This document shows positions 1,121 to 20,228 of a DNA stretch of 64,000 nucleotides, one piece after another. The position numbers were made by a program, and so were the translations under genes. This DNA is from Alphaproteobacteria bacterium (lineage in GTDB: Bacteria > Pseudomonadota > Alphaproteobacteria > Rs-D84), in assembly GCA_015062545.1 (NCBI GenBank), contig SUUL01000002.1, positions 114,995 to 178,994 of the forward strand. Direction: 5' to 3'. Under the pieces are notes generated by a model, which had not been told where the DNA came from, ran no database searches, and saw only the letters and a program-made list of their open reading frames with translations. Every line of letters begins with the position of its first letter. The stretch's first letter is position 1.

Positions 1121-1124
1121 CATT

Positions 1125-1149: not shown

Positions 1150-1203
1150 GGGAATATGGGATTTTTATGATAAAATTAGTGGGATAATCAAAGGAAAAAG
1201 CAG

Positions 1204-1794
1204 ATGGAAAAATTTTATGAAATATTTAGACGGGATCTGAAAACCAAACGTCTGGAATTGCGTGTTTTGCAACCGACCCCAGAAAATGCCCGGTTGGTTT
1301 GGGATGCCATCCAGAATGAAAATCCTGGTGATTTTAAGTATGTGAATTGGACACCCGACTATAAAAAACCGTTGCCGGAATCTTTGGATGAAACATTAAA
1401 GCAAATGCAGCAAGAGCAGGAACGTGATGTCAATCCAAATGGCGCGGTGTGGTACGTGTTTCATAACGGCAAATTGATTGGCCATCATGGAATATTTTAT
1501 TTTAGTAATAATAAATCTGTGCAGTCTGGTAATGTATGGTTTGTAAAGTCTGCCCAGGGCCAGGGTTTTAATCAAGAAATTTGGGCTTTGATAATGAAAA
1601 AGGCCTTTGATGAATTGGGCGCAAACAGAATTATGCGTCAATGTATGGGGGATAATGTACAATCGCAAAAGTCTATCAGTGGCAGTGGTTTCCATTTGGA
1701 TGGTCGTATTCGTGCATCAACTATGCTAAGTGATGGCACATTTATGGACCAGTTGGTCTTTACAAAACTAAAATCGGAATATAAGGGTAAGTAA
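1204..1794 (+). CDS. GNAT family N-acetyltransferase (RimJ/RimL-like)
   Basis: N-terminal 'LELRVLQPTPENARLVWDAI' pattern typical of RimL-type GNATs; length 196 aa. Confidence 0.6.
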   Translation: MEKFYEIFRRDLKTKRLELRVLQPTPENARLVWDAIQNENPGDFKYVNWTPDYKKPLPESLDETLKQMQQEQERDVNPNGAVWYVFHNGKLIGHHGIFYFSNNKSVQSGNVWFVKSAQGQGFNQEIWALIMKKAFDELGANRIMRQCMGDNVQSQKSISGSGFHLDGRIRASTMLSDGTFMDQLVFTKLKSEYKGK

Positions 1795-2321
1795 TGGTTT
1801 CGTTTCCGCGCATTATTGATATGGGTGATTTCCGGCTGGTAAAACTTGAGCCAACGGCACAAAATGCCGAACGGTTGTTGGCGGTTATAAACGCCAATCG
1901 TGAATTCCTGGGCGAATTCTTGGAATGGGTTGATGACTATAACACCACCGATAAAACGCTGGCAAATATTGAAAAATCATACGGCGATGATAAATGCGCT
2001 TACTTTATTATGGTGACAGATGATATTGTGGGCAAGATTGGCTTTGTGGATACAGACGACAATATGGGCGAAATCAGTTATTGGTTGGCGCATGGCTTTA
2101 ATGGTCGTGGCATAATGACACGCGCACTAAATAAACTGACCGAAATGGGGTTTGCTGACATGGGGCTGAAACGTATTCAGTTGACTATTGATGCCCAGAA
2201 TATTCGTTCTGCGGCGGTTGCACTGCGTTGTGGGTATGAGTGCGAGGGTATCTTGCGTAAATACTTTGTCTTGCGTGGTGTGCCACGTGATATGAAAATG
2301 TTTTCAAAGGTGGCAGTATGA
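1794..2321 (+). CDS. GNAT family N-acetyltransferase (RimL-like)
   Basis: start overlaps previous stop (coupled); 'FRLVKLEPTAQNAERLL...IGFVD...GRGIMTRAL' GNAT core. Confidence 0.6.
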   Translation: MVSFPRIIDMGDFRLVKLEPTAQNAERLLAVINANREFLGEFLEWVDDYNTTDKTLANIEKSYGDDKCAYFIMVTDDIVGKIGFVDTDDNMGEISYWLAHGFNGRGIMTRALNKLTEMGFADMGLKRIQLTIDAQNIRSAAVALRCGYECEGILRKYFVLRGVPRDMKMFSKVAV

Positions 2322-3091
2322 GAAAAGATACGGCAAAATCTTCGGCATTTGATATAAATCTTGGCCGGAAACATCGCGCCATCGGTGCGGAAATCAGTCG
2401 TATAAACGCCCGACAAAATGAATTATTAGAAAAATATGCTGGTAACTTGTCACCGGTGCAAAGTGAACTTACCGCAAATGCGCACAGATTGGCGGAATTA
2501 AAACAGGCGGCGCATGACTTGGTTCCATTTGATGCGGTGGCATTTGAAAAATATGCCGCAACACTGTTTCAAAATATGCAGGCGGTTATTGTTAATGATG
2601 CCGTTTTGTCGGCTGGTGCGATTAACTATGCCACGATGAATGATGCGGCACGTGCCGAATTTGGGGTGCGCTTGTATCAAAAAATGGCACAGAAATATGG
2701 TGCTGCTGATTATTCTGCAATGCAGTTTATTGTTGCCACCCATGACGGTATGGGCGGTGGATACGATTGGGATAAAACTATCAACGTTTCCACAACAGAA
2801 ATTACGGATTTTGCGGGATTTGTGTCTGTCTTTGTTCATGAATTTTCGCATTATGTGTATAATAAATTGCCACACAAATCGCCGATTAACGCCCAGTTGG
2901 TTGACATCGCAAAACAAAACTATGTCCCAGGGCCATCGCCAACAAAGGCGCACTTTGAAAAATATAAAAATCAGCCATTTGAAAAACCGTCTTATGCATT
3001 GATGGATTATTTTGCAAATCACGATTTTGTGGGCAAATTGGCCGTGGCAATCAGAATCAAACAGAACACACTGTCATGGGGTATGGAATAA
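2318..3091 (+). CDS. hypothetical protein with HExxH motif (putative Zn-metallopeptidase)
   Basis: 'VHEFSHYV' HExxH motif; translationally coupled to both flanking genes. Confidence 0.4.
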   Translation: MRKDTAKSSAFDINLGRKHRAIGAEISRINARQNELLEKYAGNLSPVQSELTANAHRLAELKQAAHDLVPFDAVAFEKYAATLFQNMQAVIVNDAVLSAGAINYATMNDAARAEFGVRLYQKMAQKYGAADYSAMQFIVATHDGMGGGYDWDKTINVSTTEITDFAGFVSVFVHEFSHYVYNKLPHKSPINAQLVDIAKQNYVPGPSPTKAHFEKYKNQPFEKPSYALMDYFANHDFVGKLAVAIRIKQNTLSWGME

Positions 3092-4551
3092 TGAAAAAGA
3101 CGCTTTATATCTTTCGTCATGGTGAAACGGATGCGAATGCCCAAAAACGTATGCAGGGGTGGTTGGATGTGCCATTGAATGCAAATGGTGTGGCTCAGGC
3201 ACAGGCGTTGGCGCAAAAACTGGCGGATGTACGGTTTGATTGTGTGTATTCATCGCCATTATCGCGTGCGGTGGATACTGCGCGTGCGGTGGTTGGCGAC
3301 CAACAGATTATAACAAACGGTGATTTGCGTGAATGGAATATGGGGGATTTTTGTGGGCATATTGTGCGATTGACAGATAACCCTGCAGACACACCGATTG
3401 ATATGTCGGGCGATATAATTTATGCGCCATACGCGTTGCTGTCTAATGATGACTATGTTCCACCAAATGGCGAAAGTTATAATATGTTTGTTGCACGTGT
3501 TCGTAATGCGTTGTTGGATATTGTGAAAAATTCAGACGGCAATACAATCGCCGTTGCGACCCATACTGGTGTGGCGAAAAATATAATCAAACAATTTACA
3601 GATGTAAAATGGCCACGTGGCGGTATGCTAAATGCAGAATATTTCAAACTGGAATACGATGGTGAAAAATTTACTCTGATTGATATGCCAGATTGGTTAT
3701 CACCAGTGTTGTTGGGGACAGATGGCAAGCCATTAACTATGTACCATGGCACATATTATGATTTTGATTATTTTCGTCCGCTTACACACTTTGGCAGGGA
3801 AATAAATGCCAGAACCAACCTGAACGAAGGTAAATGGAAACGTGACCCAAATATTGATATTACCAAACCTAAGATAATACCGGTAAATTTGCGGGCTGGT
3901 CGATGGGATGAAATCCCCGATTTGAATGACCACAGTGTTCAAAACTTTATGGGTGTGTTGTTCCGGTATATGTGTGGCGACAAAATATCGGATTTTGTGC
4001 GTGTGTTGAATATTCGTGATGATGCCGAATTTCACAAACAGATTGTATCAGCCCGACAAAAAGTATTGGATATGGAAATTGATGTCCCATGGGAATTTGA
4101 TTGGGTGTGCGAACCGATTTCGGGCAAAATGTCCGCCGATGCGGTGCGCCGTGAACTGGGGCTGGAAACACTGTTTGATATTCATACACCCGAAAATCTG
4201 TTTTTTCAGCGTATGATTTTATATTTTGAATCAGTCGGCCTGACCGGTTTCAAGTATCCAAATTTCACCGAAGGTCCCGGTGATATGTCGTATATAAACC
4301 TGCGCCAGAATAATATTGTGCGTTTGGATAAAGTATTGCCTCTGCACCCAATGCCCACCGCCGAACAGGTGGCGCAATTACATAAAATGCGTGCAGATTT
4401 TGCAACGGCGCACACTCCACGCAAATTCACGCGTGCTGAAAAAGAAATGCTGACGGCGGAATTGATTGGTTTTGCAGAATTTAGATTTGATGAAATGCGT
4501 TCGGTTGCACAAAAGTCCTGGGCAAAAAATAACAACCAAAATGACAGGTAA
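3091..4551 (+). CDS. histidine phosphatase (PGAM-like) fused to unknown ~290-aa C-terminal domain
   Basis: N-terminal 'LYIFRHGETDANAQKRMQGW...SSPLSRAVDTA' RHG catalytic motif; ATG overlaps upstream stop (taATG); the C-terminal half has no motif I recognise. Confidence 0.65.
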   Translation: MKKTLYIFRHGETDANAQKRMQGWLDVPLNANGVAQAQALAQKLADVRFDCVYSSPLSRAVDTARAVVGDQQIITNGDLREWNMGDFCGHIVRLTDNPADTPIDMSGDIIYAPYALLSNDDYVPPNGESYNMFVARVRNALLDIVKNSDGNTIAVATHTGVAKNIIKQFTDVKWPRGGMLNAEYFKLEYDGEKFTLIDMPDWLSPVLLGTDGKPLTMYHGTYYDFDYFRPLTHFGREINARTNLNEGKWKRDPNIDITKPKIIPVNLRAGRWDEIPDLNDHSVQNFMGVLFRYMCGDKISDFVRVLNIRDDAEFHKQIVSARQKVLDMEIDVPWEFDWVCEPISGKMSADAVRRELGLETLFDIHTPENLFFQRMILYFESVGLTGFKYPNFTEGPGDMSYINLRQNNIVRLDKVLPLHPMPTAEQVAQLHKMRADFATAHTPRKFTRAEKEMLTAELIGFAEFRFDEMRSVAQKSWAKNNNQNDR

Positions 4552-4558
4552 TATTACC

Positions 4559-4582
4559 CCGCCCGATTGGGCGGTTTTTTGT
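4559..4582 (+). terminator. rho-independent terminator (CCGCCCgattGGGCGG + T6)
   Basis: GC hairpin + TTTTTTGTT. Confidence 0.75.
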
Positions 4583-4614
4583 TGGGGTGCAAATACTTAA
4601 CACATTCTCAAAAA

Positions 4615-5160
4615 TTATGGTTTGTTCTTGAATTTAGCAAAACAGTTTATGTCGCGAAAACGATTTTCATACGGTGTCCATCGTTCCTGTTTTAATACCC
4701 CCTCTAATTCATATCCCAGATTCTTTGCGACATTTACAGAACCTATATTTCGTGTGTCATTATGAATTACTATCTTGTTGATTCCGGCTTTGAATAATTC
4801 CTGTTCTAACAGACTTACGGCTTCCATCATATATCCTTTGCCACGATATTCATTTGCCAGCCAGTACCCCAGCTCCGCTCTTTTATGTTTTGTGTCAAAA
4901 GTATGTGCTGCGCAATTTCCGATGATTTCATCGTTTAATATGATGGAATATTCGTATCCCTTGCCGGATTCCCATCTTTCATCAGATTGAATCAAGAAAT
5001 TCAATGCATCTTTTGGCGACTTTATATCGTTTATCCATAACAGCCAAGGCAACAAATATTCCTTGTTTCTAATTTCTACGTCATACAGCAGTTTTGCATT
5101 ATGCATGCATGGTTCCAGGTGTACCAATTTTATCCGTGGGCCTTTTATTGTTATTTTCAT
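4615..5160 (-). CDS. GNAT family N-acetyltransferase (RimJ/RimL-like)
   Basis: 'IKLVHLEP...AELGYWLANEYRGKGYMMEAV' GNAT motifs; third RimL-type GNAT in 5 kb. Confidence 0.6.
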   Translation of the reverse strand: MKITIKGPRIKLVHLEPCMHNAKLLYDVEIRNKEYLLPWLLWINDIKSPKDALNFLIQSDERWESGKGYEYSIILNDEIIGNCAAHTFDTKHKRAELGYWLANEYRGKGYMMEAVSLLEQELFKAGINKIVIHNDTRNIGSVNVAKNLGYELEGVLKQERWTPYENRFRDINCFAKFKNKP

Positions 5161-8949: not shown

Positions 8950-9975
8950 ATGGGAATTAAACCTGCAAAATTAAATATTGGCGATACGATTGCGACCGTT
9001 TCACTGTCGTGGGGTGGTGCTGGCCTGTTGCCGGAACGCTATGCCCAGGCAAAACGACAACTGGAACAAACATTTGGGGTAAAAGTGATTGAAGCACCAC
9101 ATGCACTGGATGATGCGCAATACCTGTACGAACATCCCGAGATTCGCGCATCTGACATGATGTGGGCGTTCAAAAAACCGGATGTTAAGGCAATAATTTC
9201 TAACATCGGTGGCGATGACACCATTCGTATGTTGCCATATATTGACTGGGATATCATTCGCAATAACCCCAAAATTTTTATGGGATATTCTGATACAACG
9301 GTAAACTGCCACATGTGCCATTATGCAGGACTAAACAGTTTTTATGGTCCGTCAATGTTGGTGCAAATGGCCGAAGCAGGCGGAATATTGCCTTATGTTG
9401 AAAACAGCATGCGCAAGGTTTTATTTGATAATTCACCGGTTGGAATTGTGCCAGAAAACAAAGATGGGTTTACATACGAACGCGTAGATTGGTTTACGCC
9501 TGCGGGGCAAACACAAGTTCGCAAAATGCAACAAACAGACGGATGGCATTGGATTCAAGGTTCGGGCGTTGTTAGTGGCGAACTGTTTGGTGGTTGTATG
9601 GAAGTGATTGAGATGATAAAGGGCACACAAATCTGGAATCCTGATAATTTCAAGGATAAAATTGTATTCTTTGAGATTTCCGAAGAGAATCCAACCCCTG
9701 ATCAGGTTTTGTATTGGCTGCGCAATTATGGGGCGTGTGGAATCTTGCAACAAATGCGTGCCATTATTTTCGGTCGTCCAAAGAATGAAAACAACCCAAA
9801 ATATGAAAAACGTATTTTACAGGCCTTGGCGGAATTTGGTTTAACGGATATGCCAGTTGTAACACACTTTGATATCGGGCATACCGACCCGATTATGGTT
9901 ATGCCTGTTGGATGCGTGGCAAAACTGGATTGCGATAAACACACATTTGAAATCACAGAAAACGCAGTGGTGTAA
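8950..9975 (+). CDS. ldcA: LD-carboxypeptidase (peptidase S66, LdcA/MccF-like)
   Basis: 'IISNIGGDDTIRMLPYIDW...MGYSDTT' with Ser in the SDTT context typical of S66; 341 aa. Confidence 0.7.
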   Translation: MGIKPAKLNIGDTIATVSLSWGGAGLLPERYAQAKRQLEQTFGVKVIEAPHALDDAQYLYEHPEIRASDMMWAFKKPDVKAIISNIGGDDTIRMLPYIDWDIIRNNPKIFMGYSDTTVNCHMCHYAGLNSFYGPSMLVQMAEAGGILPYVENSMRKVLFDNSPVGIVPENKDGFTYERVDWFTPAGQTQVRKMQQTDGWHWIQGSGVVSGELFGGCMEVIEMIKGTQIWNPDNFKDKIVFFEISEENPTPDQVLYWLRNYGACGILQQMRAIIFGRPKNENNPKYEKRILQALAEFGLTDMPVVTHFDIGHTDPIMVMPVGCVAKLDCDKHTFEITENAVV

Positions 9976-10186
9976 AAAATGACCAATCGATGGATATTTC
10001 TTGCCGTCAAATACCGCATATTGCCCCGACTTTACATTTACTGGCTTTTCAAACGTTGCTTTGTTCGATTCATTGGGCGATTGTGTTTCTTTATTGCTAT
10101 TATTTGATTTTTGTTCTGGCCCATTAAGTTTCAGTCTAATTTTTCATAATTGACACCTATCAGGCATAGCAATATAATATATATAG

Positions 10187-10621
10187 ATGACTAAAAACGC
10201 GTGTTTTTTTATATACATTTTATGTTCTTGTATGCTGATTCATCAATCGGCAAGATGTGAAAACACAAACCAAAAGTGGGTTGGAAAGTGGTATCTAAAT
10301 GACCAGGACACTGTTTTTGGTGGGGTAATGGATGTTTCTAACTGCGATGATACAACATGTGATTTTAAATTGGAATCGTGGTACGATTTACATATCTGTG
10401 ATGTTGACGGTAAAATAAAAATCAACGGAGACAAGGCAGAATACAACGACAAAAAACATCAATATGACAGAGAGACAGATACGGAATATTTTATTCCTGT
10501 TGGTATATTGTTTCAAATGGAGTCAGAAGATAAAATGAATCTGCGTTTTATCAATGCAGATTCATTTAGTGCTTTTTGTGGTATGCAAGCAACACTTGAA
10601 GGGATATGGATTAGACAATAA
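10187..10621 (+). CDS. hypothetical secreted protein
   Basis: hydrophobic N-terminus, Cys-containing, no known motif. Confidence 0.4.
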   Translation: MTKNACFFIYILCSCMLIHQSARCENTNQKWVGKWYLNDQDTVFGGVMDVSNCDDTTCDFKLESWYDLHICDVDGKIKINGDKAEYNDKKHQYDRETDTEYFIPVGILFQMESEDKMNLRFINADSFSAFCGMQATLEGIWIRQ

Positions 10622-11134
10622 TTAGTATTTATTCGTTCGTATTGTCCAACCATTTTTTGCCGTTTTCCAGTTTTTTGTCCCCTTTAAGTAATCTATTCTT
10701 TCGGTTTTTAGCACAACCATAAATTCGTTGACTTTGCTATCAGGAATCGTATTTATGGATTTAATTGTTTCGCTGCCTATGGCACCATCAACAACCAAGT
10801 TCGCATCCAAAAAAGAATTTAGTGCACGTTGAACTGTCTTTCCGGCACCTCCCATCACATTCATATCAAAAACTGCATCACGTATTCTGTCGTTTGTGAT
10901 TTCTGGGATTCGTGTATTGTCCCAATATTCGTTTTTATAAATTTCTTTGGCCTGTGCGGCTGTTAAATATTTTACATCTGCTGGGAAATTTTTGTCTGGG
11001 TACTTGGCAGAATATCTGTCCAGTGTACTTTGTTTAATTCCCATATTTGTTGGTTCGTCCTTAATCTGATTCTTGCCATCTGTATATCCCCCTTCGGGTT
11101 CTTTTAACTTGTTGTATGCACTTTCAAATTTCAT
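10622..11134 (-). CDS. GH108-family lysozyme with C-terminal PG_binding_3 domain
   Basis: 'EPEGGYTDG...MGI' (EGGY motif), 'FDMNVMGGAGKTVQRALN', 'LVVDGAIGSETIKSIN' peptidoglycan-binding motif. Confidence 0.6.
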   Translation of the reverse strand: MKFESAYNKLKEPEGGYTDGKNQIKDEPTNMGIKQSTLDRYSAKYPDKNFPADVKYLTAAQAKEIYKNEYWDNTRIPEITNDRIRDAVFDMNVMGGAGKTVQRALNSFLDANLVVDGAIGSETIKSINTIPDSKVNEFMVVLKTERIDYLKGTKNWKTAKNGWTIRTNKY

Positions 11135-11289
11135 ATAGTTTTCCTTTTGTTCAAAAAAATCCCGCGCGTGGCGGGAAAATAAAAATTATCAATGTTTGAT
11201 GTTAAATCGATACAGCCCGCCAAACCTGGAACCCATCCGCCATGAATTGAAAAATCATCATATTGGTTTCTTTTGATGGTTTTATCCAT
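11121..11289 (-). pseudogene. orphan C-terminal fragment of YkuD/Tlde1-like toxin (copy A)
   Basis: encodes 'MDKTIKRNQYDDFSIHGGWVPGLAGCIDL...' starting in-frame right after the stop of the upstream membrane-protein gene; homologous to residues ~95-135 of 12176..12628. Confidence 0.6.
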
Positions 11290-11307
11290 ATGCACAAGAT
11301 AAGTGTC

Positions 11308-11661
11308 TTATCTTTGTATTAAATAAGAGAGTAAATTTAGCACAATTTCCATAACAACTGGTATAGAAAGCAAAATACAAGATTGAATATATTTATGCCT
11401 TGCTCCCTTATATATTCCAACAAACAAACACGATAACTGTATAAGCAAATATATTAACAACAAGACAACATAATAAATTGTGCGTATTTCCACCCCCATA
11501 AATTCAATAAACTTACAGCATTCTCCGTACAGCATATATGGATATGGAGCCATAGTAAAAACATATCGTAATTCGGAAATTGGAACCAGTATTGCTATAA
11601 AAGATAAACATAATAGCAATACCCATCCCAAAATACATAAAATTGATTTAACTAATTTCAT
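11308..11661 (-). CDS. small multi-TM membrane protein (candidate immunity protein)
   Basis: 117-aa, three to four hydrophobic helices; lies between toxin fragment copies. Confidence 0.5.
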   Translation of the reverse strand: MKLVKSILCILGWVLLLCLSFIAILVPISELRYVFTMAPYPYMLYGECCKFIEFMGVEIRTIYYVVLLLIYLLIQLSCLFVGIYKGARHKYIQSCILLSIPVVMEIVLNLLSYLIQR

Positions 11662-11671
11662 CAATGGTATT

Positions 11672-11812
11672 TTACATTGATAATTAAATCATGTCCATTC
11701 TTTTCAAACCATTGTGTAAAATCATCGATATGATTTGTTAAATTAAAACCCATCCGCCATGAATAATAAAATCATCACGACCGTATGTGTTGGTTTCTTT
11801 TGCCAGACTAAA
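11672..11812 (-). pseudogene. orphan C-terminal fragment of YkuD/Tlde1-like toxin (copy B, frameshifted)
   Basis: 'LAKETNTYGRDDFIIHGGW' then a frameshift; the second frame reads 'LTNHIDDFTQWFEKNGHDLIINVKY*' matching the C-terminus of 12176..12628; the catalytic Cys segment is deleted. Confidence 0.65.
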
Positions 11813-12161
11813 ATTTTGCATAATGATATAACAAGGCACCAAGCAAAGAATCTATACAAGATATTATAATTGGACTTAACGCGAGCCAGAAAGATACTTT
11901 ATAGTTTTTCTTATACAAAAAATACACCGATACTGGAATAAAAAACAACAGCGTAGCACAAGAAGATACCAGATTTGTTAAATATATGTCTGCACTACGC
12001 CATGCCCATCCCATGGACTCTCCACCCCATGGACAACGTGCAAATGGAAACGCATCACGACATTCTTTGATAAAAAATTCATAATAATCAGTAAACAGTC
12101 CATATAAAAGCAATACATTTATACCAAGACAAATTATCGTGCCACGTTTCCATTTTTGCAT
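11808..12161 (-). CDS. small multi-TM membrane protein (candidate immunity protein)
   Basis: 117-aa hydrophobic protein 14 nt downstream of the toxin gene. Confidence 0.5.
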   Translation of the reverse strand: MQKWKRGTIICLGINVLLLYGLFTDYYEFFIKECRDAFPFARCPWGGESMGWAWRSADIYLTNLVSSCATLLFFIPVSVYFLYKKNYKVSFWLALSPIIISCIDSLLGALLYHYAKF

Positions 12162-12175
12162 ACATAACCCTTTTG

Positions 12176-12628
12176 CTAGTATTTTACATGTACAATCAGG
12201 TCTTTTCCAGTACTTTCTAGCCAGGATGTAAAAGCATTTATTTGCCCTGTCATATCAATACAGCCCGCTGACCCCAGATTCCATCCGCCATGAATTGAAA
12301 AATCATCACGACCGTATGTATTGGTTTCTTTTGATGGTTCCAACCATACACGAGAGCTGCCCCAAGAATATTCAGAACCCGGCCATTCGCCTACACCCGC
12401 CAGCCCGATAATTGCATTTGTTACAGAAAGGTGTTGCAACTCACTTTGTCTTGCAACGTATGTGCCTTCGGGGATTGGTCCTGTATCTTTTAGGTTTTGA
12501 TATTCAGGACTTCTGTATCCATCTTTGCCCGACACAGCATCCCACGACATAATTGGTTTGTCGTTTTCATACAGTGTAAATTTCTTGCCGTCAAACAATA
12601 CCTGGAACAACTTATGTCGATGATTCAA
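12176..12628 (-). CDS. putative L,D-transpeptidase-fold toxin (YkuD/Tlde1-DUF2778-like)
   Basis: C-terminal 'DDFSIHGGWNLGSAGCIDM' with a His..Ser/Gly-Cys arrangement like YkuD/Tlde1 active sites; two orphan C-terminal copies lie downstream. Confidence 0.45.
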   Translation of the reverse strand: MNHRHKLFQVLFDGKKFTLYENDKPIMSWDAVSGKDGYRSPEYQNLKDTGPIPEGTYVARQSELQHLSVTNAIIGLAGVGEWPGSEYSWGSSRVWLEPSKETNTYGRDDFSIHGGWNLGSAGCIDMTGQINAFTSWLESTGKDLIVHVKY

Positions 12629-12634
12629 TAATCA

Positions 12635-12970
12635 CTAATCACGCTGAAAATAAAACTTACATCCATCCAAATAAACATATATAGAATTTGGATTGGGTGC
12701 ATAAAATTTTTCTGTTGTGCCTGTGTCTTTTTTAACCAAAATTTCTTGGGCTTTTTCGTCATTATCATAACCGCCGATGGCGATGTTTGAACTATTGATT
12801 TCAAATGAAGTATTTTCATAAAAATTCTGGGCAACATATTCACAATCTGCAGTTATGTATCCAGCATATTCAAATCGTCCAAAAGACCATTTGCCGCAGA
12901 ACTCACAAGATTTACTGTCTGTAGAGCTACAACCAATCAAAAATACACAAACCAAAACTATCTTTTTCAT
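12635..12970 (-). CDS. lipoprotein
   Basis: 'MKKIVLVCVFLIGCSS' signal peptide with lipobox L-I-G-C. Confidence 0.6.
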   Translation of the reverse strand: MKKIVLVCVFLIGCSSTDSKSCEFCGKWSFGRFEYAGYITADCEYVAQNFYENTSFEINSSNIAIGGYDNDEKAQEILVKKDTGTTEKFYAPNPNSIYVYLDGCKFYFQRD

Positions 12971-13002
12971 GCAACACAGTATAAATGATACGATTGTAAA
13001 AA

Positions 13003-14139
13003 TCAATATATACCGCGTTTATACAAGTTCCATTCATTTTGTCTGCGGTTAATTAAACCGTTTGATACTTTTCCCTGGGTGCGATTCCATGCCCGCCATG
13101 CGGATTCTAAATCCGAATAAACAGAACTATGAAAATCCGGGTTGTTTATATATTTTACAACTGTTGAATTCTTAAACCCACCCGAACCGATGTTATATGC
13201 CAAAGACACCAATGCGTCATATTGGTTTTGCGCCAACGGAACCGTGATATTATCATTTACTGCACGTTCTGCCACGGCGATATCAGAACGTAATAATGCA
13301 ATCGCCTGCCGTTCTGTGATTCCGTTTGTAAAATCTTCACCCGGCTTTACCAAATGCCCATAGCCAATTGTTGCGCCTTTTGGTAAAGGCTCGTTTGGAT
13401 TTACTGGTTTTTTCGTAGCGTCATCATATATAACATGATTGCCCCGCTTGTCTAACACTCTGTCTTCTTTACCTTTTAACCATTCAATACCTTTATCACT
13501 CATTTTCATATCGGATACCTTATTTGATTTTTGTTCTGTTTTATATGGCTTTGTGCTGATTGTTTTGCCGTTTTTATCCAGTGTTTCTTCGGTAATATGG
13601 CATGCGCAGTTTTCATGAACTGGGCATACGGGTATGTCGTCTGGAAAAAAATAAACCGTGCCATCACGAGATTCGCATTCATCGCAAGTATTTTCGCCGC
13701 CACTGCTGTGCCACCGCCATATCTTGGGGGCAATTTTAAATTCAGGTATGTCCAATTCATATGTATCCAATTGCCGTTTTGATATGTAACCACCTGGCAT
13801 TAAAACTTTGACCGGTATCGGGTCGCCAGAGACAACATAATCTTCAATATTAAAATCAAAGCCAATGTTTTCAAAGTAGTCCTCAAAGTCTTCCATAACT
13901 TCTTCGGTGGCATCATCTTTTTCTGCTTCAAAATCTGCGTCTATTTCGGCCTGTGCCGCATTAAATTGTTTTAATGTCATATCGTATTCTGGGCGCATCA
14001 TACGACCAGATGCATCAAATTGCACCGTGCCAGGATATAGTATGTTCATATACTTTGTTGCCCGTCTATATGTTTCGCTGTTTTTATCGCCGTATTCGGG
14101 CGATGATAATAATTCCTGTAAAAATTTTGGTGTTTGCAT
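13003..14139 (-). CDS. phage MuF-like (head-morphogenesis C-terminal motif) protein fused to GH24 lysozyme
   Basis: 'CDECESRDGTVYF...PVCPVHENCACHI' resembles the MuF/SPP1 gp7 C-x-x-C...P-H-P-N-C-R-C motif; C-terminal 'GATIGYGHLV...ITERQAIALLRSDIAVAERAVN...PLAQNQYDALVSLAYNIGSGGF...NRRQNEWNLY' is a T4-lysozyme-like GH24 domain; GGAG RBS before ATG 14139. Confidence 0.6.
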   Translation of the reverse strand: MQTPKFLQELLSSPEYGDKNSETYRRATKYMNILYPGTVQFDASGRMMRPEYDMTLKQFNAAQAEIDADFEAEKDDATEEVMEDFEDYFENIGFDFNIEDYVVSGDPIPVKVLMPGGYISKRQLDTYELDIPEFKIAPKIWRWHSSGGENTCDECESRDGTVYFFPDDIPVCPVHENCACHITEETLDKNGKTISTKPYKTEQKSNKVSDMKMSDKGIEWLKGKEDRVLDKRGNHVIYDDATKKPVNPNEPLPKGATIGYGHLVKPGEDFTNGITERQAIALLRSDIAVAERAVNDNITVPLAQNQYDALVSLAYNIGSGGFKNSTVVKYINNPDFHSSVYSDLESAWRAWNRTQGKVSNGLINRRQNEWNLYKRGIY

Positions 14140-14247
14140 TTTATTCTCCATAAAAAACACCCGCGTGTGCGGGTAATAAAAAAGACGACAAAATGTCGTC
14201 TGTCTGATGCCGCGTATTATACCATAAAACGTACTAAAAATCAATAA

Positions 14248-14296
14248 AAAACACCCCGTTGGGGTGCTTTTTTATAATGGGGCGGATAACCGGACT
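14248..14296. repeat. direct repeat of tRNA-His 3' end (19 nt) plus its downstream terminator (30 nt)
   Basis: 48/49 identity to 28871..28919. Confidence 0.85.
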
Positions 14297-14460
14297 GTAA
14301 ATCCCCATCTGCGCCACGTTGGCGCGATGGGCCCCATTCACTACGTAAGGTTCAAACGGCGCATACGCTTGTTTTCACCAACTGGCGTTCCGAACCCTTT
14401 TGGGGTTCTCGTCCGCGCCCCATACAAAAATTAAACGACCGGCAAGCGGTCGTTGATTTT

Positions 14461-14481
14461 TTGGTGGGGACACAGGGACTC
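14461..14481. repeat. 21-nt copy of tRNA-Lys 3' end
   Basis: identical to 20152..20172. Confidence 0.7.
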
Positions 14482-14650
14482 CCTCGCACGGTGCAAAGCA
14501 CCGGCTGCGGGGCATTCCTGACAAATCGCCTGCGCTGCGCTTGGCTCTTTTACTCATTGTCGACCCTACGCCATTAGCATGGCTTTTACGGGTTCTTCGT
14601 CCCGTGTCCGCAGAAATAAAAAAACCACCCTGCGGTGGTTTTCTTATTTC

Positions 14651-14696
14651 TGGTGGGGACACAGGGACTCGAACCCTGGACCCAATGATTAAAAGT
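14651..14696. repeat. 46-nt copy of tRNA-Lys 3' end (att site of integrative element)
   Basis: 46/46 identical to 20153..20198. Confidence 0.9.
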
Positions 14697-14834
14697 TAGC
14701 TACGTATGTTTATTTTACTGTGTTTACTGTGATTATGTTTATTTTTACTTTGCATACTGGAATTAAACGGGACATATTCGGGTTTTATTTTAGATTTATG
14801 TGAATGCGTCTTATTATACAAAAAAAGGATACGC

Positions 14835-15983
14835 ATGAAAGCAAAGTTTAATTTTACAGATACTGCTATTAGTAAAATTACACCACCACATAAAAATGTA
14901 CAAAAACTTGTATTCAGCGACAACTATCAACGTGGACTTGTATTAATTGTTGGATACGGTGGCAAAAAAGCTTTTTATTTCAGGGGCAAACAACATAAAA
15001 AGAAAATTATGTTTAAAATTGGCGAATTCCCGTATATGAACACAAATAAAGCAAGGGAAAAGGTGTTTGTGCTGTACAACGACTTAAAAAGGGGAATATT
15101 GCAACAACCTGATATAAAACTGCAACACATTACACTAAAACAGCTGTTTTATGATGAATATATCCCAAAACATGCAAAAATATTTAAAAAACACAATGCA
15201 TGGCAAATAAATGAACGTACTTTTAAAACACACTTTAAAATTATTGAGAATATTGAGATAGATAAGCTGACAAGGAACAATATTGACATATGGCACAAAA
15301 GCATTGGTAAAAATAGTGGCATATACATGGCAAACAGATGTCTGGCATTGATACGCCACATGTTAAATATGGCAATAGATTGGGGGTTGTTGACTATCAA
15401 TCCTGCACAGAACATACGGCAATTTAAAGAAGTAGCACGTGATAGATTTTTGCAACCGGCAGAAATAACAAACTTTATGCAAGCATTGATGGGCACAACA
15501 AATGAAATGTTTAAGCATTTTATACTGCTGTTATTATATACAGGGCAACGAAAAGCGAACATTTTAGCGTTACGTTGGGAACATATAAATCTGCATAATT
15601 GTATATTGTACCTGCCAGACACGAAAAACAATCAATCCCAACAGATTCCACTTACTAAACAAGCAATAAATGTTTTAAAAGACATAGGCATAAAAGACTT
15701 TGGTTGGGTATTCCCCAGCAAACAAAGTACAAGCGGACATATGGAAAACCCAAAACGATACTGGGCAGAATTGCTAAAAAAAGCGAATATAACTAATTTA
15801 AGAATGCACGATTTAAGACGTACAATGGGCAGTTATCAGGCAATAGTTGGCAGCAGTATGAATATTATTAGCAAGTCGCTGGGGCACAAATCAATACAAT
15901 CAACAGCAGTGTATGCAAGACTTTCATTAGAACCTGTAAGGGAATCAATGCAAAAAGCAACAGACGAGATAATGAAATATTAA
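14835..15983 (+). CDS. int: tyrosine recombinase/integrase (P4-like)
   Basis: C-terminal 'LRMHDLRRTMGS...LGHKSIQSTAVYARL' R-H-R-Y catalytic motifs. Confidence 0.85.
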   Translation: MKAKFNFTDTAISKITPPHKNVQKLVFSDNYQRGLVLIVGYGGKKAFYFRGKQHKKKIMFKIGEFPYMNTNKAREKVFVLYNDLKRGILQQPDIKLQHITLKQLFYDEYIPKHAKIFKKHNAWQINERTFKTHFKIIENIEIDKLTRNNIDIWHKSIGKNSGIYMANRCLALIRHMLNMAIDWGLLTINPAQNIRQFKEVARDRFLQPAEITNFMQALMGTTNEMFKHFILLLLYTGQRKANILALRWEHINLHNCILYLPDTKNNQSQQIPLTKQAINVLKDIGIKDFGWVFPSKQSTSGHMENPKRYWAELLKKANITNLRMHDLRRTMGSYQAIVGSSMNIISKSLGHKSIQSTAVYARLSLEPVRESMQKATDEIMKY

Positions 15984-16057
15984 AAAAATTTTTGCAGTTG
16001 GTTAACTTCTGACTATGCTATCGTTTATTATTTTATTCATGTAAAAAAGGATGAAAC

Positions 16058-16774
16058 ATGAATAAAATAAAAATACATTTGGGATACGAGGCACAAACAT
16101 TTGAACACAGGGACTTTAAATCTTTTGACATAGATTTAACCACATTTCCAGCATTGTTTATTGATTATAATAATAATTATTTTGGGGTAACAGCTGACCC
16201 AATCACATTATCAATTATTAGTCAAATAAAAGACCTAGATAAAAAAAATAGAACACTACACACTGTTATTATAGACAAAGGTAGAATAACGCATAATTCA
16301 GCTATGCCAGAAGGAACGTACAAAAAAAATGACCCCGGAATAATGATAAAAAGATTAACTGCAATTGTAGCAAAACGTTATGAAAAAAGTTTGCAAGACG
16401 AAAGCTACCTTACTCACCATAAGTACGTAGTGATAGTAAAAGGAATTAATGGACTGGAAGCATTATTGACTAAAATGATGTCTATGCTTGGTGCAGTTGG
16501 GGTCTACTTAATAATGGCTGACAACAGCAGTGAATTAGAAGGATATAGCTATTTAAAAGAGTATTTATACGGCCAAATAACTTATGCAAGCCAATGGGAT
16601 ACACCTGCAGGGGTTGGTATATGTCCTTCAGAATACGGCCCTAGTTATGGGATAGTTACAGAAAGATTCAAACCCGAGTACAAATGTAGTAAAGATATAT
16701 ATTCAGATTTTAATTATAAAAAAATAATAACTCGCGAACCAACGCCTATAGAATGGTTGTTTAGTCAATTATAA
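16058..16774 (+). CDS. hypothetical protein
   Basis: 238-aa ORF with no recognised motif. Confidence 0.4.
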   Translation: MNKIKIHLGYEAQTFEHRDFKSFDIDLTTFPALFIDYNNNYFGVTADPITLSIISQIKDLDKKNRTLHTVIIDKGRITHNSAMPEGTYKKNDPGIMIKRLTAIVAKRYEKSLQDESYLTHHKYVVIVKGINGLEALLTKMMSMLGAVGVYLIMADNSSELEGYSYLKEYLYGQITYASQWDTPAGVGICPSEYGPSYGIVTERFKPEYKCSKDIYSDFNYKKIITREPTPIEWLFSQL

Positions 16775-17011
16775 CCTTGCTTTTATTGTAATTTTTATGA
16801 TAGTATTCCCTTGAATCATATAAGTGGTTCAAGGGCGTCAGAACCCTGTTAATGCATTGTATCCGTGGGGATATTAAACACCTCCGACTGTAATTGGTTG
16901 GAGGGTGGCGAAATATCAAAATAAGCCCGCTATTTTCAATGCATTATAGTTCTGAACCTCCAACCACCAGTATGATTTGGTGGTTTTTTATTAACATAAA
17001 AAGGATGAAGC

Positions 17012-17236
17012 ATGGCTTTTGTAATAATGATAGCGTGTTTGGCGGCATACTTCTTGCCAACGATTGTTGCTGTACTGAACAGCAAATGTACAAACAAGAT
17101 TGGTATTTTTATATTGAACTTGTTATTGGGTTGGACGTTTATAGCATGGGTTATTGCGTTAGTAATGGCATGTGGTAATGGCGTACGTGAAACAATAGTT
17201 ATAAACAATGATAATTCAGCTAAAACAGCAAAATAA
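17012..17236 (+). CDS. superinfection immunity protein (Imm_superinfect family)
   Basis: 74 aa, two TM helices, 'YFLPTIVAV...LNLLLGWTFIAWVIALVMA' signature. Confidence 0.6.
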   Translation: MAFVIMIACLAAYFLPTIVAVLNSKCTNKIGIFILNLLLGWTFIAWVIALVMACGNGVRETIVINNDNSAKTAK

Positions 17237-17293
17237 TACTGGGTTGGGTGCAAAAATGCCCAACCTTATTATTTTACAACAAAGGACACACAG

Positions 17294-18523
17294 ATGAAAG
17301 TACAAGCATTATTAGCGGTGTTATTACTGTCTGCATGCGGTGGTTTAACACAAGAGAAATTTTATGAAGATACTAACAATGCACAAAAAGCAACCGAATT
17401 AAGTGGTAAGGCAATACGAACATCAGATTGTGATAAAATTGGGCAATTATATGAGTTTTCGGTTATGGACAACCCAACCGCAAGTGATTTAGAAGCAATA
17501 TTGCCATTGTTGGGCGTACAAAAGAAAGATTTTAAAAATATAGATAAGCTATATACATTAGATTTAAGTGCAGTAGATAAATTAAAATGCGAAGACAACA
17601 GAGATAAACTTGGTAGTGAAGCACGCCGGTATTGCAAAGATAAGTATTATGACGAATATGGTATTGAGACTGCAATGTACTTTCCATTCAGATTGGTTTC
17701 GACAGTATCTGTATTTACTATAGTCGGTGCAATTCCTTTTATGGCACATAGTTGTGGCATGGAATCAGTATGGCATCCAATTGCATGTAATAGAATGCTA
17801 GATTGTAGAAAACACTTAATGCAAACGGTAAATACAGGCACAGAAGATTATTCTGGTGTACGTAAAAGCAAGATAAAAGAGCAGATACAGGCAAAAATAA
17901 GGCAAATATACGCAATTCCTAATGTATGTAAAAATTATCATACATATACAAATGATTATGGTAAAACGATAAAAGAATATGACGAAAAATTTCATTATGC
18001 GTTTTCAGAATTTAAGCCAAGTGAAATGATAGCAGCAGCAAATAAAACGATTGGTACATATGATGACGACTGCATGAATGGCACAATATGTGATAATAAC
18101 GACACAAAAATAGTAACTGGGGCTAATGTAGCAAAAGTGTTATATAATCATTGCAGTAATGATATTGATATGTGGCTTAGAACAGATGACTATATAAGCT
18201 TTAATTGTTCTTGTTTTGCACGCAATGCTTACAAAGACGTTTCATACAAGAATATGTTGTACATTTATGAAAACAAAGAATTCCCACAAAGCAAAGAAGC
18301 AGAACTGACAAGGCAAATGCGCAACTGTAAAAACAAATGGGACAAGCAAGTTGCACAACAGCAGATAAACAGATATGGCGAAACAACGGACGGACAGACA
18401 AATAGTGATGTAGAAGCAGCTATTAATAACGTTGTAGACGCAGTGCAGAATGCGGTTTGGATGAACGAACAATTAACTGAAAAAAGGAAAGATATAGAGA
18501 ATTTGCGAGATTTGGACATATAA
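17294..18523 (+). CDS. Cys-rich lipoprotein, hypothetical
   Basis: 'LLAVLLLSACGG' lipobox; 409 aa with many Cys. Confidence 0.5.
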   Translation: MKVQALLAVLLLSACGGLTQEKFYEDTNNAQKATELSGKAIRTSDCDKIGQLYEFSVMDNPTASDLEAILPLLGVQKKDFKNIDKLYTLDLSAVDKLKCEDNRDKLGSEARRYCKDKYYDEYGIETAMYFPFRLVSTVSVFTIVGAIPFMAHSCGMESVWHPIACNRMLDCRKHLMQTVNTGTEDYSGVRKSKIKEQIQAKIRQIYAIPNVCKNYHTYTNDYGKTIKEYDEKFHYAFSEFKPSEMIAAANKTIGTYDDDCMNGTICDNNDTKIVTGANVAKVLYNHCSNDIDMWLRTDDYISFNCSCFARNAYKDVSYKNMLYIYENKEFPQSKEAELTRQMRNCKNKWDKQVAQQQINRYGETTDGQTNSDVEAAINNVVDAVQNAVWMNEQLTEKRKDIENLRDLDI

Positions 18524-18723
18524 AATTGCATAAATAACAATAGGAACTGACACCATTAGGCAATATTGGACGCTAACTATTGTTACGAGCAAGAAATAAT
18601 ACAAAAGGCACTGACAATACATGCAGTGCTTTTTTATTATTTTTTTGACGCAGGACAGCGATAAAAAAAACTCCTTAGAAACAACAAGATAGCGTCTTAA
18701 TATATAGGTATAGGAGTAAAAAA

Positions 18724-19260
18724 ATGAATATAAATATTATATTAAAGAACAAATTAATGTTTGATTTGGCTAAATGCCCCCACACACTTGTTGTTTGCAA
18801 AAATAAAACACGAGAAACAACAGTAAAATATATTGTAGGCGAACTGTTAAAACAAAATATTACTTGTATAGAAACAGATAGCATAGCAGAAATTGAAGAA
18901 GAGCTGGAAGATAGATACAGACTGTTTATTGAAACAGAAACAAGCAGTATTGAAGAATATAACGCAAAACACGAAGATAAATTAGACTATTGGGTAATTA
19001 TTATAAAGGATATTAGCTCGTACGATGCATTAAAAGAAATACTTATGAAAGGACGTGCAGCAGGCATTCATGTAATGCTGTTTGTAAAGAACTTTAGCGG
19101 TATAAAGAAAGATAAAGAGCTGATACATATGTTTCCTGTAAGATTAATATATAGAAATTCACACAAACGCGAAACTGTTATTGTTATTAGCGAAATTGGT
19201 AAAGGGGCTAAAATATTAAAATTAGACGACGATAACAAGACAAACAGTGAAGTAATATGA
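18724..19260 (+). CDS. hypothetical protein
   Basis: 178-aa ORF. Confidence 0.4.
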   Translation: MNINIILKNKLMFDLAKCPHTLVVCKNKTRETTVKYIVGELLKQNITCIETDSIAEIEEELEDRYRLFIETETSSIEEYNAKHEDKLDYWVIIIKDISSYDALKEILMKGRAAGIHVMLFVKNFSGIKKDKELIHMFPVRLIYRNSHKRETVIVISEIGKGAKILKLDDDNKTNSEVI

Positions 19261-19301
19261 CGCACAGCTTTAACGACAGCTAGGCAATAAAAAAACGCTG
19301 T

Positions 19302-19835
19302 TTATACAGCGTTAAATAACATAGAGCTGGTATACATATTTTCAAAATCTATATGACGCTTATGTAATGGATATTCTTTAACAATATAATTAAACACATC
19401 GTAGTTAAATACAGTACGTGTAAGCAAGTGATTGTGTACAGGTGTATAATTATTGTTTTTTTGAAATGACTCGCTGTATGTATCGTAAGTAAGATATAGG
19501 TATGGACAATGTAGTAAAGTCTTTTCGATTGCTGTATTAAAGTCGCTTGTTGTTTGTTGCATAAGGTTAAATACAGAATGTACATGTAAGATATTGGTTT
19601 TGCCATGCTCTATAATAGTAATAGAAGGCAACGGATGCTTAAACCAGTTACGTCCTTGAAAATGTGTTAATATACGTGAATATATTTTTCTGGTTTTTTG
19701 CTTGGCTTCTTCTATACTTTTTTGCTGTTGATTGAAGCGCAATGTGCAAAAAACAAGATTGTCAGACAAATGCATAGATAATGCTTGCTTGATAAAGTGT
19801 ATAACAGCTGATTGATGTAATTGTTTTACATTCAT
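19302..19835 (-). CDS. hypothetical protein with HUH-like motif (possible rolling-circle Rep)
   Basis: 'NILHVHSVF' H-u-H-u-u-u plus downstream Tyr cluster 'YLYLTYDTY'; tentative. Confidence 0.3.
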   Translation of the reverse strand: MNVKQLHQSAVIHFIKQALSMHLSDNLVFCTLRFNQQQKSIEEAKQKTRKIYSRILTHFQGRNWFKHPLPSITIIEHGKTNILHVHSVFNLMQQTTSDFNTAIEKTLLHCPYLYLTYDTYSESFQKNNNYTPVHNHLLTRTVFNYDVFNYIVKEYPLHKRHIDFENMYTSSMLFNAV

Positions 19836-20152
19836 AATAAACTCCTTTGTATATAAAAATAATTTGATTTAGGGTATAGCTCTCACATAGGAAAAAGCGA
19901 AGTCTTTCCTTTGTGTCGGGCGCAAATCCCATAAATTTATGTCAGCACCCGATTTGCTAAAATAAATTTTATGGGTGATATATAATATATTTATCGCAAA
20001 AACTAAATTTTGTGAACCAAAGTGAAAAATTTTTTTCGTAAAAATTGCAGTAGTGGACGAAAAAGGGACAAAAAAGGGAAATAAAATTAGCAATAAAATT
20101 GACGCAAACAAACAAAACAAATAAAAAACCTGCTGATTTCAGCGGGTTATCT

Positions 20153-20228
20153 TGGTGGGGACACAGGGACTCGAACCCTGGACCCAATGATTAAAAGTCA
20201 TTTGCTCTACCAACTGAGCTATGTCCCC
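20153..20228 (-). tRNA. tRNA-Lys (anticodon TTT)
   Basis: manual cloverleaf: acceptor GGGGACA/TGTCCCC, anticodon loop cTTTTaa, TTCGAGT T-loop, CCA encoded; stem-loop + T-run terminator at 20128..20150. Confidence 0.85.

Follow-up and report, generated by a model that had tools for sequence, protein, structure and literature searches.

A probable MuF-class polymorphic toxin locus with peptidoglycan-directed warheads in a gut alphaproteobacterium

We analysed a stretch of 64,000 nucleotides (nt), referred to here as the window, from contig SUUL01000002.1 (assembly GCA_015062545.1, positions 114,995–178,994) of an Alphaproteobacteria bacterium; all coordinates are those of the window. An array on the minus strand, at about 9996..14244, probably constitutes one polymorphic toxin locus of the MuF class, with peptidoglycan-directed warheads, envelope immunity proteins, and displaced cassettes. 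Our fairly high confidence concerns the architecture and the toxin/immunity logic, and does not extend to the T7-type phage gene set considered below as a vehicle. The minus-strand row consists of the main toxin gene (13003..14151), a lipoprotein gene (12635..12970), a Tlde1 gene (12176..12628), a first transmembrane (TM) protein gene (TM1, 11808..12161), a decayed cassette (copy B), a second TM protein gene (TM2, 11308..11661), another decayed cassette (copy A), a terminator-like hairpin, and a GH108 gene (10622..11134). The plus-strand gene orf144 (10187..10621) converges on this row. A preliminary description of the same DNA had placed a Tlde1-like effector, membrane immunity candidates, and two orphan copies of the effector C-terminus within 10622..13006. 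All features that it named were found, on the minus strand. The description is partly supported: it was right in kind, but the interval was too small, since a fourth Tlde1 fragment is located at 9996..10064, and the delivery module was missed.

A conserved N-terminal module with exchangeable C-termini

The main toxin gene (13003..14151, minus strand) encodes a protein of 382 amino acids (aa) composed of an N-terminal module, a linker, and a lysozyme warhead, GH24a (Pfam Phage_lysozyme, 4e-31); open reading frame (ORF) calling extends the gene to 14244 from a TTG codon. The module comprises residues 1 to ~200 and ends in a MuF core, W-W...C..C...P-H-N-C-C, with the junction ITEETLDKNGKTI; the fixed junction after the module reads ITEETLD-NGKTI. 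Longer Tlde1 homologues carry the motif W-W...C..C...IP..P-HPNCRC-IEE..LD-NGK in front of the domain, and the same motif is located in the middle of the window gene previously labelled “MuF::GH24”. Homologues were therefore sought with residues 1–211 of this gene product. The 23 that were retrieved all have the N-terminal region in common and differ in their C-terminal parts. In a near-identical strain, the protein P0121 matches the module at 97% identity as far as ...ITEETLDKNGKTI, beyond which a linker leads to a Tlde1 domain of subtype A, not GH24; subtype A is also that of copy A in the window. Other homologues of the module continue into GH24 (P0139, P0143) or GH108 (P0135, P0141, and loci L018, L027, L029, L032, L045, and L046).

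A scan of one genome per species gave 44 loci, with all full-length matches in metagenome-assembled genomes of Candidatus (Ca.) Enterousia or other gut Alphaproteobacteria. Five kinds of C-terminus are found past the junction, namely Tlde1 (with at least five tail subtypes), GH24a, GH24b, a third, T4-lysozyme-like type, and GH108. This modular exchange across genomes is directly observed, and a conserved N-terminal module with different C-terminal toxin domains is among the features by which MuF toxins are recognised. Judged from the sequences, every C-terminus type found is predicted to act on peptidoglycan. Because different C-termini come after one junction, the lysozymes are alternative warheads of one modular family. 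The preliminary description had regarded the array as merely flanked by lysozymes, and the delivery domain as out of view; instead, GH24 and GH108 belong to the same system, each with its own partner, and the shared module is the N-terminal half of the “MuF::GH24” gene. At L012 (11584..12811), the full N-terminal module occurs twice in tandem; a MuF::Tlde1 gene is followed by MuF and GH24b, the latter apparently split by a frameshift.

The Tlde1 warhead, a domain of the L,D-carboxy/transpeptidase type, is present in the window as a complete orphan of tail subtype M, a 150-aa ORF (12176..12628, minus strand) with neither N-terminal module nor linker, which ends ...DDFSIHGGWNLGSAGCIDM.... An exact-protein look-up of this ORF gave no match, as the public gene call of the identical protein (P0001; start at 12598, 140 aa) begins 10 codons later. 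Its earlier assignment as a Tlde1/YkuD-type effector is borne out by profile searches, in which Pfam Tlde1_dom (PF10908) scores 40.4 bits against a cut-off of 30.1, and YkuD 33.3 bits against 23.4. A phmmer search of the domain against PDB sequences returned a chance match only, and was thus uninformative, so that a fold search was needed. An AlphaFold model based on 28 aligned relatives (mean pLDDT 92.9) has its best PDB fold matches in Salmonella Tlde1a (7UMA, 7UO8, and 7UO3; TMq 0.69–0.72, probability 1.0), with 7UMA at TMq 0.72 and E 5e-6, and with Bdellovibrio Bd1075 and B. subtilis YkuD next. Residues R97, H103, S110, G112, and C113 are invariant in the 28 relatives, and the spacing R97...H103...S110-A-G112-C113 equals that of the Tlde1a catalytic positions R115, H121, S128, G130, and C131 (PMC9638812). 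These residues correspond to the LD-transpeptidase-type motif H...(S/T)HGC and its conserved arginine. The SHGC motif of Tlde1a includes His129 (PMC9638812), the equivalent of which is alanine (SAGC) in all 28 aligned relatives.

The GH108 muramidase warhead occurs in the window as a stand-alone ORF (10622..11134, minus strand; 170 aa; Pfam GH108, 1.7e-14) with its own AGGA-type ribosome-binding site. A hydropathy scan revealed neither a signal peptide nor a hydrophobic segment in the Tlde1, GH24, and GH108 enzymes.

Partner genes, displaced cassettes, and mosaic loci

The genes next to the warheads are small, and their identity depends on the type of warhead. The GH24a sequence is followed after ~33 nt by the gene of a 111-aa lipoprotein (12635..12970, minus strand) with a lipobox, LIGC, at residues 11–14, and this lipoprotein is a candidate immunity protein for GH24a. 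The lipoprotein gene is found 3' of GH24a in the window and at nine other loci, and as an orphan without GH24 at five. The immunity candidate for Tlde1 subtype M is TM1 (11808..12161, minus strand), the 117-aa multi-TM protein noted previously 14 nt 3' of the Tlde1 stop codon, for which the hydropathy scan gives three TM segments, the first two being joined by a loop with two cysteines. TM2 (11308..11661, minus strand; 117 aa, three TM segments) is an intact orphan candidate for Tlde1 subtype K, and its start overlaps the stop of copy B. For GH108, the candidate is the 144-aa orf144 (10187..10621, plus strand), which is Cys-rich and, with a hydrophobic N-terminus, presumably secreted, is convergent with the GH108 gene, and adjoins GH108 in the window and at 11 other loci.

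Cognate pairing is most evident for the Tlde1 domains, the subtypes of which were assigned by tail motif (single-linkage clustering at 60% identity had merged all of them). A tail of the M type (...GCIDMTGQINAF...) has a member of the TM1 family next in seven of the seven cassettes that have a downstream ORF. The K-type tail (...GCIDLTHHIDEFTQWF...) is followed by the TM2 family in five of five, with a stop/start overlap every time, and the A-type tail (...GCIDLTSN[IM]DNF...) by a 105-aa TM family in eight of nine. Two further Tlde1 tails each have their own I2 subgroup next (3/3 for each). The identity of the partner thus tracks the last ~30 residues of Tlde1, and this co-variation of tail subtype and TM family, over about 30 cassettes, upholds the earlier view of the downstream TM proteins as immunity candidates. 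The TM partner families have a length of ~105–128 aa, are unlike in sequence, and have no Pfam or NCBIfam match; those inspected carry a loop of ~30 residues with two cysteines after the first hydrophobic segment, which may be periplasmic. TM1 and TM2 are not duplicates, since BLASTP finds no similarity between them.

A warhead-type-specific ORF of less than 150 aa downstream (the lipoprotein, the TM proteins, and orf144) is also a feature by which MuF toxins are recognised. The partners bear features of envelope proteins (the lipobox, three TM segments, or a hydrophobic N-terminus), and they outlast the toxins: the decay of copy B has left its neighbour TM2 intact, and orf144 is complete beside remnants of GH108 at L031 and L050. 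As far as sequence can tell, such retention would be the pattern expected of immunity genes kept against the toxins of other strains. The small envelope-located partners are accordingly named here as candidate immunity proteins, for which co-variation with the warheads provides the support.

The same set of genes could be read as a phage-type lysis cassette, with GH24 and GH108 as endolysins, the 3-TM proteins as holins, and the lipoprotein as a spanin, where lysis of the producer would free particles. Class I holins are small proteins with a 3-TM topology, which the TM proteins resemble in size and topology. GH24 also belongs to the Phage_lysozyme family, and the stand-alone GH108, with its own ribosome-binding site, has a partial NCBIfam match to “holin-associated N-acetylmuramidase” (54.9 bits, cut-off 240). 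Against this, most genomes encode the enzymes as fusions with an N-terminal module of the virion type, no Tlde1-type enzyme is known to be an endolysin, and several non-homologous “holins” in tandem would be redundant. The strict dependence of the TM family on the last ~30 Tlde1 residues fits neutralisation by protein–protein contact and not hole formation, and the TM, lipoprotein, and orf144 genes survive beside destroyed enzyme genes. A free-standing endolysin with a holin independent of the enzyme subtype was not found, and we regard a lysis cassette as very improbable.

The decayed copies in the window have counterparts that are intact elsewhere. Copy B (11667..11802, minus strand) is a Tlde1 subtype-K 3' cassette that matches the complete Tlde1 gene in two pieces, 11802..11750 against 12333..12281 (92.5% over 53 nt, E 5e-17) and 11725..11667 against 12237..12179 (71% over 59 nt). 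As the preliminary description stated, it is frameshifted and lacks the Gly-Cys segment; both defects result from the loss of ~19 nt between the two pieces, where the GC active site would be encoded. The intact K cassette of L016 is 90.5% identical over 969 nt, compared with 950 nt in the window, which locates the deletion to copy B. Copy A (11182..11299, minus strand), a decayed Tlde1 subtype-A 3' fragment (HGGWVPGLAGCIDLTSNIDNF...), aligns over 11299..11200 with 12355..12248 (~77% identity, 10 nt deleted; E 1e-18); a terminator-like hairpin at 11160..11176 (minus strand; hairpin scan) truncates it. The previous observations on copy A, that HGGW...GCIDL is retained and that its ORF (11131..11295) shares the reading frame of TM2 (11308..11661) before it, both hold, but copy A itself is frameshifted upstream of DDFSIHGG. 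Its cognate 105-aa gene is absent here; subtype A is the main-gene warhead in L007, L013, L016, L028, and L040, where the gene for the 105-aa TM protein follows. The fourth Tlde1 fragment (9996..10064, minus strand) consists only of the pre-domain linker ATFEKPVNVKSGQYAVFDGKK, and is 92.8% identical to the main-gene linker of L007 (9959..10027).

The interpretation of the partial copies as displaced orphan cassettes therefore stands: the K type is intact in L016, the A type is the main gene in L007, and the orphan C-terminal fragments combine homology to the main gene with an immunity-candidate gene of their own. Further orphan cassettes are present in L007, L016, L021, L028, L031, L036, L045, and L048. 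A non-coding repeat family that also occurs at unrelated loci would have been an alternative explanation. Since no further sequence in the 64-kb window matches the Tlde1 gene significantly, the repeat is confined to this locus and derived from coding sequence, and not dispersed and non-coding. A very long array was observed at L048 (~348..4850), in which a main Tlde1 gene is accompanied by two orphan Tlde1 tails with several TM genes and by a GH108 that bears the junction.

How the cassettes are rearranged is visible from the closest strain, L007, in which the N-terminal module protein is 99% identical. The region from upstream of the gene to the junction (window 14415..13558) is 94.5% identical to L007, where the GH24a–lipoprotein cassette is absent. 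The 5' part of the window Tlde1 gene (12595..12248) corresponds to the 5' part of the L007 main gene (92.5%), and its 3' part together with TM1 (12347..11747) to an L007 orphan cassette (97.5%). Window 11746..11276, with the K tail and TM2, is absent from L007, and the A-type immunity genes of L007 are absent from the window. From copy A via orf144 to the linker fragment (11275..9990), the two are 97% identical. These mosaic breakpoints are observed at the junction/linker or inside the conserved Tlde1 core EPSKETNTYGRDDFSIHGGW.

Some orphans have retained part of the junction: GH108 in L006 has an in-frame junction remnant (...FTEETLDEKGKTIAKKDYK) in front, as it does in L048, and such orphans keep the homology needed to be fused again to the main gene. 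We propose that homologous recombination at the junction/linker or the Tlde1 core EPSKETNTYGRDDFSIHGGW would swap the fused warhead and leave orphan cassettes behind. The orphan immunity genes would be retained for the protection that they give from neighbours armed with those warheads.

The MuF core, genomic setting, and possible delivery

The assignment of the N-terminal module derives from several searches. PF04233 (Phage_Mu_F) matches ten of ten aligned N-termini (best E 1.6e-6), and several relatives carry a precomputed PF04233 match. PHROG head-morphogenesis and minor-head families match residues ~141–255 (E 4.5e-8 to 2.6e-4), and PHROG endolysin families also match the main gene product. 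For a model of the N-terminal 200 aa (pLDDT 81.7), the top structural matches in BFVD are nearly all MuF or minor capsid proteins, aligned over ~55 columns with E ~0.07; a fold search of the model against the PDB gave nothing meaningful. When 1.8 billion representative proteins were searched with a profile, ~30 clusters had the full-length module, and more than 300 further proteins matched the core alone, at profile positions ~135–195. The module thus probably contains a genuine MuF core together with a lineage-specific front part; by the profiles that define MuF toxins in the strict sense (PF04233, PF06152, or MuF3/4), it may be a member of the MuF domain family. The delivery route, which had been left open, is narrowed to a candidate MuF/phage-head route, with a conserved portal–capsid set in the same window.

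This core also bears on another reading, that the enzymes are effectors of a type VI secretion system (T6SS) or another contact-dependent machine encoded elsewhere, for which the N-terminal module would serve as the adaptor. To date, the role characterised for Tlde1 is that of a T6SS effector whose immunity protein is periplasmic (PMC9638812). Warheads that act in the periplasm and are countered by immunity proteins of the envelope are likewise typical of the T6SS. Neither the scanned window ORFs nor the annotated gene tables of the loci include a gene for a T6SS, a type VII secretion system (T7SS), or Rhs, and the genomes of Ca. Enterousia are smaller than 1 Mb (PMC12306168). The N-terminus also carries a MuF core, and not a module of the PAAR, VgrG, or MIX type. 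From the ORFs and loci covered, secretion by such a machine appears very improbable.

Upstream of the main toxin gene, a consensus scan found a promoter-like site, TTGATT-17-TATAAT with TG, at 14216..14244 (minus strand; 10/12 matches, a pattern match only), and two tandem terminator-like hairpins with T-runs are located between this site and the start codon (14183..14201 and 14158..14175, minus strand). Both hairpins recur 5' of the homologous gene in ~30 loci of other species (L007–L051), with stem variants that keep the pairing. Control by antitermination, i.e., read-through as in phage late genes, would be a reasonable interpretation. The leader and promoter have no significant similarity to those of the capsid, portal, and terminase genes.

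A T7-type structural gene set (42581..54530, minus strand), identified by Pfam and PHROG matches, is a candidate for the particle, and its link to the toxin locus is that of a candidate only. It comprises, all on the minus strand, genes for the portal (42581..43810; Head-tail_con, 3e-81), the C-terminal half of the large terminase (43840..44736; phrog_38 positions 483–703) and its N-terminal half (48021..48626; phrog_38 positions 271–462), tail tube B or nozzle (49023..50753), tail tube A (50761..51318), the capsid (51615..52481; Phage_capsid_2, 8e-71), and a T7-type scaffold (53199..53876). A gene of the histone H1-like HC2 family (52655..53092; 3.5e-21) is located between the scaffold and capsid genes, and a SleB-like hydrolase is also part of the set. 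The terminase halves are parted by dnaB, a gene with a double helix-turn-helix, and a 212-aa ORF on the opposite strand. This gene order, including the dnaB-split terminase, is syntenic in other species (loci L057–L059 and L060–L139). Between species, identities are 92–96% for the capsid, 87–90% for the portal, and ~65% for the tail tubes, compared with 81–94% for frr, 86–90% for DnaB, and 80–90% for BamA, i.e., the capsid and portal are conserved at the level of core genes. Many “proviruses” of ~10 kb in IMG/VR are the same block, and more distant elements there have the canonical, unsplit order. The set looks like a domesticated podovirus relic that has kept structural genes only, perhaps akin to a gene transfer agent. 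Because the MuF protein gp7 of phage SPP1 binds the portal, the T7-type set is a plausible carrier of MuF-anchored enzymes; that it is the vehicle for the toxin is possible, if doubtful.

A number of observations weigh against a MuF-class locus of the kind proposed, or against its delivery by this particle. The PF04233 match of the window protein itself is 20.7 bits, under the cut-off of 29.6, and covers profile positions 61–111 of 112, i.e., the C-terminal half only. The first ~135 aa of the module have no recognisable relative in Pfam, BFVD, and PDB searches, and no relatives of the N-terminal module were found in the viral contigs scanned. None of the 44 loci has a homologue of a portal, terminase, or capsid gene within 10 kb of its MuF gene. 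The locus is outside a prophage and not beside a portal gene, which is 28 kb from the toxin gene in the window and ~33 kb on the L010/L057 contig, so that the (pro)phage location beside portal or terminase genes by which MuF toxins are recognised was not found. The loci for which gene tables were read are flanked by housekeeping genes (frr-uppS-cdsA-rseP-bamA, argCJBD, or others). As for the partners, GH24b has no lipoprotein homologue 3' of it, and the third lysozyme type has no adjoining same-strand partner ORF in the loci listed. The Tlde1-M cassette has neither a junction nor a convincing ribosome-binding site, and is therefore probably a silent reserve in this strain, in which the active fusion is GH24a. 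No MuF motif or toxin gene was detected in 80 virus-catalogue contigs with a related capsid, and the dnaB-split terminase leaves particle production by the T7-type set in doubt.

The sequence of events that we propose starts with synthesis of the main gene product in the cytoplasm, without a signal peptide. The N-terminal module would then load the toxin into a phage-derived particle via the portal, in the manner of SPP1 gp7, and the particle, possibly built from the T7-type capsid, portal, and tail set 28 kb away, would eject the enzyme into the envelope of a target cell. There, the warhead would be toxic, and the partner protein would neutralise it in the periplasm. We further consider it conceivable, if unlikely, that Enterousia, which is predicted to live off other cells, keeps the T7-type set as a protein-delivery or killer particle with exchangeable MuF-anchored hydrolase cargo.

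The same physical mechanism, in which the enzyme is packaged, ejected, and cuts the wall, would apply if the MuF-like::hydrolase were a virion-associated entry enzyme and the envelope proteins were superinfection-exclusion factors, in an arms race between entry and exclusion; the purpose alone would differ. As an ordinary internal head or ejection protein of the domesticated T7-type particle or of a phage, the enzyme would then breach the peptidoglycan of the recipient to let in DNA or cargo, as T7 gp16 does. Phage MuF::lysozyme fusions exist, as phrog_4728 (head morphogenesis) aligns with residues 143–372, lysozyme included, and where phages have peptidoglycan-acting domains fused to MuF, a role in helping injection has been suggested (PMC5512222). 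The window also contains the conserved particle gene set. The toxin gene is never beside the particle genes, however, and arrays of orphan warheads and partners typify toxin/immunity systems that act between strains. Furthermore, there is no obvious selection for blocking the helper of a beneficial particle. An entry enzyme therefore appears quite improbable.

Several other features of the region were noted. No Rfam family accounts for the GC-rich stretch 14250..14700 upstream of the toxin gene, which consists of 3' fragments of tRNA-His and tRNA-Lys. The 3' end of tRNA-Lys(UUU) occurs in three copies (14462..14481, 14651..14698, and 20153..20228), one in an intact gene and two partial. Between the copy at 14651 and the intact gene is a low-GC (~33%) island of ~5.5 kb with a tyrosine integrase gene (14835..15983) and an Imm_superinfect-family gene. 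An older tandem insertion, since mostly deleted, is suggested by the short copy at 14462. The toxin array was considered as part of this integrase island, and was rejected as such: the tRNA-Lys repeats bound 14651..20228, and the array is outside. A 49-nt direct repeat (14248..14296 and 28871..28919, 98%) comprises the tRNA-His 3' end plus the terminator that follows it. In L007, tRNA-Ala/His is directly upstream of the toxin gene, whereas ~14.6 kb with recG-like, M48 peptidase, and major facilitator superfamily genes and the tRNA-Lys island separate the two in the window. This stretch may represent an insertion or a site-specific rearrangement at tRNA-His.

At the other end, a Peptidase_S66 gene (8950..9975) abuts the toxin array in this genome. 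This LD-carboxypeptidase was considered as a member of the system and discarded; none of the other genomes for which flanks were read has it next to the locus, and the adjacency is therefore probably coincidental. Two adjoining ORFs of ~370–400 aa (29186..31623) between frr and tRNA-Ala/His have coiled-coil-type Pfam matches only, and are absent from that position in L007. Directly after bamA, three ORFs of 250, 219, and 258 aa are located at 37270..39471, of which the first has a weak match to VirB8 below the cut-off, and the first two are fast-evolving (36–56% identity between species, compared with 80–90% for bamA).

Relation to known systems and significance

MuF has been described as one trafficking mode of polymorphic toxins, with predicted packaging into phage heads (PMC3482391). 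The MuF toxins surveyed later are abundant in gut metagenomes and found exclusively in temperate phages or prophages, mostly of Firmicutes. There, 87% of the chromosomal muf genes are close to a portal or terminase gene, and a small ORF is located 3' of 89% of the toxin genes (PMC5576092). Nuclease domains account for more than half of these toxins and metallopeptidases for 20%, with ADP-ribosyltransferase and RelA-like domains also frequent (PMC5576092). SPP1 gp7 is the best-studied MuF protein, the portal binding of which is cited in the same survey (PMC5576092). As for those toxins, the present family has an N-terminal module with a MuF motif, exchangeable C-terminal toxin domains, and a small ORF of less than 150 aa that follows. 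It differs in its alphaproteobacterial host, the housekeeping-gene setting, the portal ~28–33 kb away, and a module in which only the MuF core is recognisable. Further differences are the peptidoglycan-directed warheads, in contrast to the cytoplasmic targets discussed for MuF toxins, the envelope immunity candidates, and the orphan arrays of multiple cassettes. The locus as such is unusual in three respects: all of its warheads are directed at peptidoglycan, it is outside any prophage, and the genomes of the host genus are smaller than 1 Mb.

The similarities to Salmonella Tlde1/Tldi1 include the fold, the His/Cys spacing, the conserved arginine, the periplasmic peptidoglycan target, as predicted for the present enzymes, and an immunity gene, here a candidate, directly downstream (PMC9638812). 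Unlike that pair, the enzymes described here have no T6SS context in the window ORFs and annotated loci, and carry SAGC in place of SHGC. Moreover, the immunity candidates are 3-TM proteins from several unrelated families, and the enzyme is a swappable C-terminal module, not a free-standing cargo effector.

Contact-dependent inhibition (CDI) and Rhs systems feature a conserved junction, a variable C-terminus (CT) with its cognate immunity gene next to it, and downstream orphan CT/immunity pairs with homology for recombination. The junction, the cognate immunity candidates, and the displaced orphans with main-gene homology resemble CdiA-CT/CdiI and Rhs arrays. Unlike those, the delivery module has a MuF core and is not that of a type V secretion system or a T6SS. 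Many of the orphans also start inside the toxin domain, at its conserved catalytic core, and only the last ~50 residues are exchanged together with the immunity gene. This part of Tlde1 is therefore predicted to be the site of immunity specificity on the enzyme.

Phage T7 gp16 is a single conserved structural protein that is ejected and cuts peptidoglycan, with no immunity partner or cassette exchange. The toxin proposed here would be similar in that it is packaged in the head and cuts peptidoglycan on ejection from a T7-type particle, and different in its immunity partners and cassette exchange, and in that the toxin gene is not encoded within a phage.

If this reading is correct, Tlde1, so far characterised as a T6SS effector, gains a second delivery context, the phage-head MuF module, within a polymorphic-toxin family whose entire warhead repertoire would attack the cell wall from the periplasmic side. 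Packaging by MuF into phage heads was proposed in 2012 and 2017, and the toxin role and the delivery are hypotheses in both papers (PMC3482391, PMC5576092). As toxin locus and T7-type structural set are both kept in genomes of less than 1 Mb, this compact system makes the packaging hypothesis directly testable. Should the particle prove to be the vehicle, it would be a capsid-based counterpart of tailocins or the T6SS, used against competitors or to lyse partner or prey cells for nutrients. Strain-specific envelope immunity would then shield kin, and the leader terminators would hold the toxin off until an antiterminator of the phage-late type acts. The locus thus bears on how an uncultured, metabolically dependent gut symbiont may interact with its neighbours.

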